From positions 434,001-498,000 of the forward strand of contig ML978125.1 of the NCBI GenBank assembly GCA_010015805.1: 64,000 nt of DNA. Direction: 5' to 3'. A program made the translations under genes and the position numbers. The DNA is from Rhizodiscina lignyota. Lineage: Eukaryota. Below are positions 22,085 to 24,836 of the stretch, one piece after another; position 1 is the first letter of the stretch; every line of letters starts with the position of its first letter. The notes below the pieces were generated by a model that saw only the letters and a program-made list of their open reading frames with translations, had not been told where the DNA came from and searched no databases.

Positions 22085-23038
22085 CTACTCCATCATCGCC
22101 TCCCGCTGCCTCTCCTGCTCCTCCCTAATCCTCGTCCACTGCCACGGCTCGTCAACCTCCCTCTCCCCTCCCTCCCTCCGCCACACTGCAATCGTCCTCA
22201 TCGGATCAACTTCATTCGCATCCATCCACCCCTTTAGTCCATCCCAGTCTCTGCACACTGCATTATACGTGAAATCTGGCTGCGGGATATCGACGTCCCG
22301 CATCCAATTATATGTGATTAGTTCCGTGGGCGCTGCGCACTGCAGCGCTTCTCGCACGACGTCGAGACAGTGCAATAGATGATCTTCGTGTAAAGGTGAG
22401 AGCATAGATGCGTCGGGATAGTAGTACTCCCGGAAGAGATTCTTCCTGATGCCGTTGAGGCAGTGGAGTTGGTGCGTTACAAGTGGCATCATGAGATGCG
22501 CGTCAGGGTTATCTGGCGCATGGACTGTGAGAGAGGGGTCTTTGCCTATGTGGGTGACGTCGGCGGCGGTGATGTATGTGAGGCCGAGACGTGTGAGTTG
22601 TTTCCATGCCTCGTCGACTTGAAGACCAGGTGGTTGGGCGTAGACGGAGCGGTTGTAGAGCGTGTCGTTGATGGATTTGGTTTTGAGCGGAACGGAGACG
22701 CGATCGAGGAGCGGTGCTGCGAGCACGGTCAGACGGATTGAACCACCATGAGAAGCCCAATACGTACAGTAGTATGATGTTTGTTTCAGGAGGGGGTTAA
22801 GGTCAGTGGCGTAGCCGTCTGTGGAGGGGTTGTTGCTACGAAATGTACGAAAAGCCACATCGGCAAATGTCACGAGAAACATTGTACAATTCAAAACGAC
22901 AAGAATGAATGTCCACTTGTAATTGAGCTTCCTCGATGCGCCTCCGTCGATAGGTAATTGGACGCCCTGCTCTTCATCTTTCTCAAGCATTGGTAGTCTT
23001 TCTTCCGCTGAGTACCCATCTTGCTTGAGATTCGCCAT
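22085..23038 (-). CDS. UstYa/DUF3328 family oxidase (fungal RiPP cyclisation/tailoring enzyme)
   Basis: N-terminal TM anchor. An in-frame 51-nt intron (22717-22767) restores YYSPLLDR. Motifs VDEAW, two HxxHC (HQLHCL, HLLHCL), LQCA and the C-terminal CRDW. Confidence 0.92.
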   Translation of the reverse strand: MANLKQDGYSAEERLPMLEKDEEQGVQLPIDGGASRKLNYKWTFILVVLNCTMFLVTFADVAFRTFRSNNPSTDGYATDLNPLLKQTSYYCTYWASHGGSIRLTVLAAPLLDRVSVPLKTKSINDTLYNRSVYAQPPGLQVDEAWKQLTRLGLTYITAADVTHIGKDPSLTVHAPDNPDAHLMMPLVTHQLHCLNGIRKNLFREYYYPDASMLSPLHEDHLLHCLDVVREALQCAAPTELITYNWMRDVDIPQPDFTYNAVCRDWDGLKGWMDANEVDPMRTIAVWRREGGEREVDEPWQWTRIREEQERQREAMME

Positions 23039-24305
23039 TTTCTTTAGAGCCAGTGAAACATCTGAGAGAACTTTGGAGAATGAATGAGCGACTGAGGAGA
23101 TAGTGGAGATAGAAAAAGATCATTATTCTAAATTCCAGAAACGGTACCATCGCCGGTATGATTTATCGTTCCCTTGAGTGGTGACATGTAACCTCGAAGC
23201 ATTTGCAAGACTGCGACGGATTTGGCAGGCGCTTTGCTCAGATAAGCTCGATCGCTACGTTGATTTAAGCTAGATAGTGGAATACGAGCCGACCCGTGGT
23301 GCTGACGCCAAGGATCACCAACCACATCCCCCAAGTTTGTGCTAAGGACACAATGGCGTAGTCCTTGCGAAAGAAACCAATGGGCGGTTGATGTTATACA
23401 GGAAATATCCAGGTTCCGCGCCGAGTGGTGGGATCATTTGCGGCCGAGGCGACGATCCGTTCGAGCATTAACTAAACGTTGATATCCACAAGGTAACCTT
23501 GGTTTCGCCGATGGTGCTCGAAGTCCTAAAAATTCAAGTGCTGTCGGAATTGTTCAAGCATTTCCGCGGGGATTACCGAGCTTCCTGATCTTGCTATTGC
23601 CCTTCCTTGACAGATATTCAGAGATTATGCTGAGGGATTAAGCCGTGGAAAGCCGCCAGTGGTGTCTGGCAAAGCTTTGATACCACTTGTTAGTGTTGAT
23701 TCGCTAATGTTAACTCGCTTGGACGTTCTAGTTAGCGACTGATGTATACGCGACTATGCCACCTTCTGTTTTCTGCCAAGATCGCGATATCTTCCAATGG
23801 GAGCCAAACACTAATACAATCTTCGATCTCTCGCACTCCCACCAGAAGCTCTTTGGAGTCATCAACTCCGGGAGCGTCAGCGAGCTCCACAAAGTCGTCA
23901 TCAGGATGCAGTGTGTAAAGCGGAATGCGACATTTTCAACAGGTGCTGGCAATCGAAGGATTCGATTGTCTTTGATCCCTTGCCCTTCATACCGAAAGAT
24001 GCTTGGAGGCATGGATTACGAAAGCGACAGTTAGATCCATATTCAAGAGCAAGGACTGCACGGTTACCGAGAATAACCGCCAAGCAGCTAGAAGGTGCAA
24101 AGTGAGGTCATACTCCAAGATGTCTGTTGAATGAACCGGAAACAAATACTGCAAATAGCAGGAGATTAAATGTACTCAATCGGAGCACGAGGATAAAGGT
24201 GCAGAAGAAAGTCGGCCTACTGGAGGTGTCGACGTAAACTTGCAGATTTGGCTGAAGAGTTAAGGAATTGAGAAAGGATGAATGTAAGCGACAGGTTCTC
24301 AGTGG

Positions 24306-24311
24306 TATAAA
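24306..24311 (+). promoter_or_regulatory. Putative TATA box of the repeat-precursor gene
   Basis: TATAAA about 90 nt upstream of the ATG at 24401. Confidence 0.45.
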
Positions 24312-24400
24312 TGGGAAGGAAATTCGTCGATATTGAAAGTATCAGAACCATCCTGCAGGGCAGATCAGCAGCAGATCAACATCTCTAGAACAAAATCAAT

Positions 24401-24836
24401 ATGCGTTTCACCGGCTTCATCTCGGTTGCCGTGCTGGGCCAGTTGGCGATGTCATTGCCAGTTTGTAAGTTGTATGATTCGGCGTATCTTTTCTAAACTG
24501 ACAAAGTTAGCTCCGTCTGCTGCAAGCCTTCAGCAGAGGAATCCTGCACCACCACCAAAGTATATGCCACTGGTCGACGTTGAAATTGGAAAACGGGCTC
24601 CCCCTCCAAAGTATATGCCACTTGTTGACGTCGAGGAAAGGGCACCGCCGCCAAAATACATGCCCCTCGTTGATGTTGAAGTTGGAAAGCGCGCTCCTCC
24701 TCCAAAGTATATGCCACTGGTCGATGTCGAAGAGCCTGCTCCTCCACCAAAGTACATGCCCCTCGTTGATGTGGAGGAGAGGGCACCGCCGCCAAAATAC
24801 ATGCCTCTCGTCGATGTCGAGGTGCTTCCAAAATAA
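24401..24836 (+). CDS. Secreted Kex2-processed repeat protein / RiPP precursor peptide (129 aa)
   Basis: Exon 1 (24401-24464) encodes signal peptide MRFTGFISVAVLGQLAMSLP. A phase-1 intron (24465-24510, GTAAGT..CTGAC..TAG) joins in frame to six copies of APPPKYMPLVDVE with IGKR, ER, VGKR, EP and ER linkers. Confidence 0.9.
24546..24821 (+). repeat. Coding tandem repeat, six units of 45-51 nt
   Basis: The 13-aa unit is identical in all copies, with many synonymous differences (e.g. AAG TAT versus AAA TAC). Confidence 0.95.

Follow-up and report, generated by a model that had tools for sequence, protein, structure and literature searches.

Reactions reported for members of the UstYa family of fungal proteins (DUF3328) are hydroxylation (by CctR), halogenation (by ApnU) and macrocyclisation (by AprY), and the copper chemistry of the family was reported in 2025 (PMC12435403). 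CctR is described there as a homodimer anchored in the membrane, which binds two copper ions through its HxxHC(x)nHxxHC motif and requires oxygen as well as electrons, and the asperipin cyclase AprY, as cited in the same paper, is reported to be copper- and oxygen-dependent and dimeric like CctR. The Umemura catalogue of Kex2-processed repeat proteins (KEPs), whose Methods require at least three tandem repeats of at least eight residues between dibasic sites (KR, KK, RK or RR), contains 1758 KEPs with a nearby DUF3328 gene, reports a KEP no more than 15 genes away from 31.8% of all DUF3328 genes, with a peak in DUF3328 counts at the position adjoining the KEP gene, and finds tyrosine in 65.6% of DUF3328-associated repeats vs 38.2% of the others (PMC7329392). 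We analysed a window of 64,000 nucleotides from Rhizodiscina lignyota, a Dothideomycete of the order Aulographales (assembly GCA_010015805.1, contig ML978125.1, positions 434,001 to 498,000 of the forward strand; all positions below are those of the window), in which an earlier note, made from the sequence alone, had pointed to a repeat precursor gene lying head-to-head with a UstYa gene. A two-gene UstYa-dependent modified-peptide locus with a new core is the most likely explanation of this arrangement.

The precursor gene lies on the forward strand and is predicted to comprise two exons. Exon 1 (24401-24464, 64 nt) carries the ATG at 24401 and a signal-peptide-like N-terminus, the intron (24465-24510, 46 nt) opens with GTAAGT as donor, closes with TAG as acceptor and has a branch-like CTGAC 10 nt from its 3' end, and exon 2 (24511-24836) encodes a short pro-region, six units with their linkers, and a tail that ends at the stop codon 24834-24836. 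Removal of the intron puts the signal-peptide exon in frame with the repeats, and the frame obtained by joining the exons by script, 390 nt long, encodes 129 residues and the stop. This two-exon structure, with its predicted intron, is compatible with the sequence. No RNA record is listed for 21900-25100; the single sequencing run found is DNA, nearly identical along the entire stretch and probably the source assembly, and contains no splice joints. The N-terminus has a basic residue at position 2, hydrophobic residues from 3 to 17 and small residues at -3 and -1, the likely cut being predicted after residue 18 by the -3/-1 rule; 11-residue Kyte-Doolittle windows amount to 1.4-2.0 over residues 1-12, and a 15-residue pro-region precedes the first unit. 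By its looks, judged informally by hydropathy and the -3/-1 rule only, the precursor would be secreted. A plain call of open reading frames (ORFs), by contrast, begins at an intronic ATG (24474) and gives a false N-terminus devoid of the signal peptide. The coordinates, the intron, the six identical units, the signal peptide (as far as this informal judgement goes) and the wrong N-terminus of the ORF track, all claimed in the earlier note, were thus borne out by the joined frame and its features.

The six identical 13-residue units, each APPPKYMPLVDVE, form an array at 24546-24821 on the + strand (24546-24584, 24597-24635, 24642-24680, 24693-24731, 24738-24776 and 24783-24821), separated in this order by the linkers IGKR, ER, VGKR, EP and ER and followed by the tail VLPK. 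The unit has a single invariant tyrosine and is rich in proline, leucine, valine and methionine; as read from the spliced protein, the units contain no serine or threonine and the tail has no C-terminus of the glycosylphosphatidylinositol (GPI) type. Arginine ends four of the five linkers, directly 5' of the next unit. At the nucleotide level, the copies of the repeat match at 72-81% (Tandem Repeats Finder), and the six unit copies differ in pairwise comparison by a mean of 7.3 of 39 nt. Variable sites number 11 out of 39, all of them third codon positions, and at least 17 substitution events are needed among the six copies, every one synonymous. Since about 24% of the possible single changes in the unit are synonymous, such an outcome has a probability of about 3e-11 under neutrality. 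Only the + coding frame yields one peptide for the six copies, the other five frames giving 4-6 different peptides. Taken together, the synonymous-only changes and the one-peptide frame therefore mean that the frame is coding, that the exact unit peptide matters and that the linkers can vary freely. The precursor gene is real, and its unit is under strong purifying selection.

The UstYa gene (22085-23038, - strand) is contained in a 317-codon ORF that matches PF11807 with an E-value of 1.8e-37 (129.8 bits against a cut-off of 25). It is composed of exon 1 (23038-22768), an in-frame intron of 51 nt (22767-22717; GTACGT...CTGAC...CAG) and exon 2 (22716-22085), all on the - strand. The length of this intron is a multiple of three and it holds no stop, so that the unspliced ORF stays open and reads 17 spurious residues. 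The spliced translation (300 residues) is identical to the database protein KAF2099408.1 (P0001), a hypothetical protein of R. lignyota, and the splice is confirmed because this annotated protein matches the spliced form. Two HxxHC motifs are found in the spliced protein, HQLHC at 172 and HLLHC at 203, and both motifs, as well as C217 and C245, are invariant in an alignment with 11 relatives. An AlphaFold2 model (mean predicted local distance difference test, pLDDT, of 67.9) shows residues 1-37 as disordered (pLDDT below 50), a helix at 40-68 (pLDDT about 90) that coincides with the hydropathy maximum (residues 44-63), and a folded C-terminal domain whose helices 169-184 and 200-216 carry the HxxHC motifs. 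With its PF11807 domain, both motifs and a predicted membrane helix, the UstYa protein reads as intact, as had been claimed beforehand and as the profile check agrees. In the model its layout, a disordered N-terminus followed by a membrane helix and a helical domain with two HxxHC motifs, matches that of CctR (PMC12435403). Enzymes of the CctR/AprY type are disulfide-linked homodimers with two copper ions bound per monomer.

The start codons of the two divergent genes are 1362 bp apart, in agreement with the spacing of about 1.36 kb given in the earlier note, and the pair spans 2.75 kb altogether. The shared upstream region (23039-24400, 1362 bp) presumably acts as a bidirectional promoter; a TATAAAT box-like motif of putative function lies within it on the + strand (24306-24312), 89-95 bp 5' of the precursor ATG. 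No recognisable gene was found in this region, its two ORFs (92 and 94 residues) being devoid of Pfam matches, nor were there notable repeats. The surroundings were explored by a Pfam scan of 60 stop-to-stop ORFs from the window (32, then 28 between about 13 and 36 kb), which short exons of multi-intron genes may have escaped. These 60 ORFs contain neither a second DUF3328 gene nor a match to the peptidase S8 or SET families, and the sole methyltransferase-like match, at 59094-61601, lies about 35 kb from the pair. As far as domain searches tell, the locus would consist of two genes.

The pairing recurs in relatives of the UstYa gene. Contigs of the Joint Genome Institute (JGI) metagenomes were scanned by a pattern derived from the UstYa alignment, which gave 79 loci, and all six frames of these were screened by script for ORFs no shorter than 40 residues that hold a 6-residue word (with at least five different residues) in three or more copies spaced by 8 residues or more. 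A repeat ORF was found near the UstYa match in 19 of the 79 loci, or 19 of 46 if only loci flanked by at least 3 kb are counted. The distance of the repeat region from the UstYa match is 618-2569 bp in every case, and the 141 kb situated more than 5 kb away held no such region. One repeat, that of L051, is part of an ORF of 787 residues and unlikely to represent a precursor; the other 18 regions are precursor-like and are all situated upstream of UstYa. The pairing on which the earlier note had built its reading stood up in the relatives. In 14 of the 19 regions (L051 included) the best frame of the script is on the strand opposite to UstYa, as in the window, and manual reading adds L037 and L071. 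The divergent upstream arrangement of a repeat gene is therefore recurrent among relatives of the window UstYa.

Loci with repeat ORFs are L002/L003, L005, L024, L036, L039/L046, L041, L043, L048, L057/L058, L065/L067, L069, L071, L078 and L017/L019. Among them, L002/L003, L039/L046, L057/L058 and L065/L067 are near-duplicates and L041 and L069 encode similar repeats, leaving about a dozen distinct repeat families after near-duplicates are merged; L017, L018 and L019 share an identical UstYa segment in the tree described below, and L017 and L019 hold a tryptophan-rich repeat below the three-copy rule. The cores beside these metagenome relatives are rich in tyrosine, tryptophan or His-His. Tyrosine is present in 8 of the about 12 distinct families (manual count), and none of these families resembles the window unit. 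Most of the repeat ORFs contain classical KR-flanked short cores; linkers with no dibasic pair also occur in the L005, L039/L046 and L065/L067/L069 families, and the irregular linkers of the window precursor are not unique for that reason.

A maximum-likelihood tree of 56 rows was computed from 47 locus segments (tblastn match longer than 110 query residues, no stops) and 9 database proteins, the 32 metagenome loci with short or interrupted matches being left out. It places the window UstYa in a clade with P0002 (ENA, 47% identical), P0004 and L001 (Shimodaira-Hasegawa-like approximate likelihood ratio test, SH-aLRT, 99), L001 being its closest metagenome relative. The closest named relative, P0004, is RAK95939.1 of Aspergillus ibericus. 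RAK95938.1 belongs to KEP type 681 and is marked 'DUF3328 in vicinity' in Table S2 of the Umemura catalogue, where the one other member of this type, OOF95604.1 of A. carbonarius, is also DUF3328-marked (PMC7329392). A more distant UstYa relative, KKY33860.1 of Diaporthe ampelina (P0033), likewise follows a catalogued DUF3328-marked KEP, KKY33859.1; in both pairs, gene adjacency was deduced from consecutive accession numbers. For Diaporthe helianthi, a species possibly not surveyed, there is no KEP match in the catalogue.

As for the precursor itself, the searches returned next to nothing. A word-indexed search of 5.8 billion proteins gave nothing at an E-value of 0.01 among 144 word-sharing candidates, and the plain-ORF form of the precursor was also absent from the protein collection. 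A HMMER search against 1.84 billion representatives gave seven matches at an E-value of 1e-3 or below, the best with 46.9 bits and none at 1e-10; six of the seven are long unrelated repeat proteins (364-1014 residues), aligned through periodicity only, and were discarded. No public protein model seems to hold these repeats, because the neighbouring UstYa protein is present in the searched collections while a self-match of the precursor is not. Look-alikes in the ESM Atlas scored 0.84, 0.84 and 0.80, and are a lead at best; the one at 0.80 is an alpha-mating-factor cluster. A precursor of an alpha-factor-like mating pheromone was considered and rejected, given this score of just 0.80, the absence of an MF_alpha or any other Pfam match and the adjoining DUF3328 gene. 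Three peptide strings of the precursor were found neither in the full texts searched, which did not cover papers under subscription or supplements on bioRxiv, nor in any of the three supplementary tables that accompany the Umemura catalogue (PMC7329392), as the earlier note had anticipated in calling the core unlike the known ones; R. lignyota is not among the strains surveyed in that catalogue, and its precursor could not have been listed there.

In view of these results, we consider that the precursor is probably the substrate of the neighbouring UstYa enzyme. From a mechanistic point of view, the precursor would enter the secretory pathway by means of its signal peptide and would meet, in the lumen of the endoplasmic reticulum or Golgi, the UstYa protein, which by analogy with CctR and AprY may be a membrane-anchored, dimeric, two-copper, oxygen-dependent oxidase with a lumenal catalytic domain. 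The enzyme would recognise the invariant 13-residue unit and modify it oxidatively. The likeliest reaction would be a side-chain cross-link through the single tyrosine, leading to a small macrocycle, with hydroxylation and desaturation as alternatives; tyrosine is probably the cross-linking residue, in the manner of the systems characterised so far. Judging from general knowledge of the secretory pathway, a kexin may cut after the two KR sites and other proteases may separate and trim the remaining units, for example by cleavage after the single arginine that ends four of the five linkers, by a dipeptidyl aminopeptidase acting on an Ala-Pro or Pro-Pro N-terminus, or by exopeptidases that would halt at the modified ring.

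Several observations weigh against this interpretation. Only two of the five linkers are dibasic (IGKR and VGKR) and EP has no basic residue at all, which is why classical Kex2 release of each unit does not apply here. The Kex2-processed precursor proposed in the earlier note was accordingly not upheld: with just two dibasic sites, the precursor as read here falls outside the KEP rule (PMC7329392). The linkers, which the same note had described as KR or ER, do read IGKR, ER, VGKR and ER at four places, and EP at the remaining one makes that description imprecise. No tyrosinase, methyltransferase, peptidase, transporter or regulator was recognised by Pfam beside the pair among the 60 ORFs. The precursor has no homologue in either protein collection, and the contig of the closest metagenome relative, L001, ends just upstream of its UstYa gene, where an upstream precursor would lie, there being no repeat ORF in the 10 kb downstream. 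In Lachnellula suecica, no KEP is catalogued under an accession next to that of the UstYa relative TVY80561.1. Finally, DUF3328 proteins also act in non-ribosomal and polyketide pathways (PMC12048977).

The formation of a tyrosine macrocycle, as a specific chemistry, seems clearly less likely than the enzyme-substrate relation as such, because members of the family also hydroxylate and halogenate. UstYa might also act on the precursor by hydroxylation, halogenation or desaturation of an aliphatic side chain (proline, leucine, valine or methionine), in line with the three kinds of reaction reported for the family, with the abundance of precisely these residues in the unit and with the fact that about a third of DUF3328-associated repeats have no tyrosine (PMC7329392). 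We nevertheless regard such a chemistry as unlikely, since the unit has one invariant tyrosine, tyrosine cross-links are present in ustiloxins, phomopsins and asperipin-2a (PMC7329392) and probably in epichloecyclins (PMC10540207), and tyrosine is found in most of the repeat families beside the UstYa relatives.

It might also be that the repeat protein gives unmodified secreted peptides (a hormone, a pheromone-like peptide or a signalling KEP), the UstYa protein serving something else and the adjacency being meaningless. Head-to-head adjacency to a family that accounts for about 0.065% of fungal proteins (9399 DUF3328 genes among 14.5 million proteins; PMC7329392) is unlikely to arise by chance, as an immediate DUF3328 neighbour is expected in roughly 0.1% of cases (our own arithmetic from the figures of that paper), and the upstream arrangement recurs in UstYa relatives. 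Moreover, mating-factor KEPs are almost never accompanied by DUF3328 (PMC7329392), no MF_alpha or other Pfam family matches the precursor, and its two dibasic sites would not free six equal linear peptides. Although 78% of catalogued KEPs have no nearby DUF3328 gene, many of them being thought to be linear (PMC7329392), although an alpha-mating-factor cluster is among the Atlas look-alikes (a lead at best, at 0.80), and although no other tailoring gene was recognised near the pair among the 60 ORFs, this explanation appears distinctly unlikely to us. An intact, proline-rich secreted repeat protein with a surface, adhesive or interaction role, maybe cross-linked at tyrosine by the neighbouring oxidase or other enzymes, would account for the 29 prolines among the 111 residues after the predicted signal-peptide cut, for the three linkers of five without a dibasic site, one of them without any basic residue, and for a next downstream gene (ATG about 25942) that also looks small, secreted and rich in cysteine, serine and threonine, but it is improbable, as six perfect units set against variable linkers are a multi-core pattern whereas structural repeats usually tolerate substitutions, as the units offer no serine or threonine for O-glycosylation and the C-terminus is not of the GPI type, as arginine still ends four of five linkers directly before a unit, and as the repeat ORFs beside UstYa relatives mostly hold classical KR-flanked short cores.

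A bolder reading can be envisaged, to which we give little credence: the locus could represent a sub-kind of UstYa pathway with no Kex2 cleavage at every unit, in which a single copper-type UstYa recognises a long conserved unit and installs a cross-link not yet described for fungi. This cross-link might involve the lysine that neighbours the tyrosine, or the tyrosine and the proline-rich N-terminal end, as suspected for epichloecyclins, and the product might be a peptide that is released or, alternatively, a multi-unit protein that is stapled and kept whole. The irregular linkers of the L005, L039/L046 and L065/L067/L069 families hint that KEP-based mining systematically misses such precursors.

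The genes around the pair do not extend this picture. A multi-pass membrane protein of the DUF7703 family (20173-21216, + strand, E 3.6e-39) is convergent with the UstYa gene; its membership of the locus is doubtful, since none of the 79 metagenome loci contains a counterpart. Just 3' of the UstYa stop, a direct repeat of 27 nt (21780-21806 and 21961-21987, 89% identical, 181-nt spacing) was observed, with similarity extending on either side. Further away, at 5667-18719, a run of metabolic genes encodes a tannase/feruloyl esterase, a short-chain dehydrogenase, an alpha/beta-hydrolase, a class I/II aminotransferase and an MmgE/PrpD protein, and may be a separate small-molecule cluster. On the other side, the ORF downstream of the precursor (25819-26412, + strand) has no Pfam match; it shows a signal-peptide-like N-terminus, an eight-cysteine region and a long tail rich in serine, threonine, alanine and glycine, and resembles a small protein of the secreted or wall type. 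Beyond it lie a housekeeping F-actin capping beta subunit and then a helicase. When eleven flanking ORFs (DUF7703, PrpD, the aminotransferase and the secreted ORF at 25819 among them) were compared with the 79 metagenome loci by tblastn, there was no match. Nothing suggests that they are members of a conserved cluster.

If the pair works as proposed, it would rank among the smallest UstYa systems, being made of a single enzyme gene and a single substrate gene, and would offer a simple system in which to study how a DUF3328 enzyme recognises its peptide. Its precursor, like others of its kind, would escape both annotation-based and KEP-based surveys, since no public protein model holds it, plain ORF calling misses exon 1 and the dibasic rule excludes it. 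The irregular linkers, the signal-peptide exon split off by an intron and the absence of a public protein model in the searched collections are unusual, not unique, features. Catalogued but uncharacterised DUF3328-associated repeat precursors already number well over a thousand, and the window locus is one more candidate that will not surprise a specialist. The pair is nonetheless a sound lead for natural-product work and an example of what annotation-based mining misses.

Comparison with the classes defined so far gives a graded picture. The locus has a DUF3328 gene with two HxxHC motifs, and a precursor with a signal peptide (informally judged) and tandem cores, which is what the current enzyme-centred definition of dikaritin-type systems asks for (Montalban-Lopez 2021, quoted in PMC12048977), its product criterion aside, whereas it lies outside the older five-gene definition (Ding 2015, quoted in PMC12048977); the dikaritin-type label of the earlier note therefore holds in the first sense and not in the second. 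Ustiloxin and phomopsin precursors share with the window precursor a signal peptide, tandem repeats and a core tyrosine, along with a UstYa protein with two HxxHC motifs and the secretory-pathway processing to be expected (PMC9233826). By contrast, their clusters include several DUF3328 genes, a tyrosinase, a methyltransferase and peptidases or transporters (PMC12048977), none of which was found near the window pair among the 60 ORFs, and their ether bridge uses an isoleucine two places after the tyrosine (PMC9233826), where the window unit has proline; the resemblance of the window core to that of phomopsin is loose. With the DUF3328-associated KEPs of Umemura, the window precursor has in common the signal peptide, identical tandem repeats, an adjoining DUF3328 gene and tyrosine, and it is of a stand-alone type devoid of homologues, like 2560 of the 7878 catalogued KEPs (PMC7329392); it differs from them in that its gene is not in the annotated proteome.

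Two further systems to compare are those of asperipin-2a and epichloecyclin. The asperipin-2a pair (AprA and AprY) is, like that of the window, made of a signal-peptide repeat precursor with tyrosine in the core and a single DUF3328 protein, with no tyrosinase (PMC7329392). The window core is unrelated to it in sequence, and one tyrosine per unit makes a bicyclic product with two tyrosine ethers impossible; the precursors also differ in that only two of the five window linkers are dibasic. The asperipin cluster includes reductase and transporter genes, while no reductase or transporter adjoining the window pair was recognised among the 60 ORFs. In the epichloecyclin system (gigA, gigB, gigC and kexB), GigA repeats are 27-mers with LxKR at every unit (PMC10540207), from which the window linkers differ; the window has neither a cluster-encoded kexin nor a SET methyltransferase among its 60 ORFs, its precursor has no detectable similarity to anything in the protein collections, and a cluster of the epichloecyclin type, with kexB, gigC and a GigA-like LxKR precursor, is thus not what the window contains. 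On the other hand, a secreted repeat precursor of similar size (GigA, 131 residues) lies there beside one DUF3328 gene, the core has a conserved lysine and tyrosine, as in the window unit, a bond has been proposed between the tyrosine and the proline-rich N-terminal end of the core, and the follower is removed by unknown proteases (PMC10540207). With one DUF3328 protein, one repeat precursor and no tyrosinase, the window locus may, by analogy, work as the systems of asperipin-2a and epichloecyclin do.

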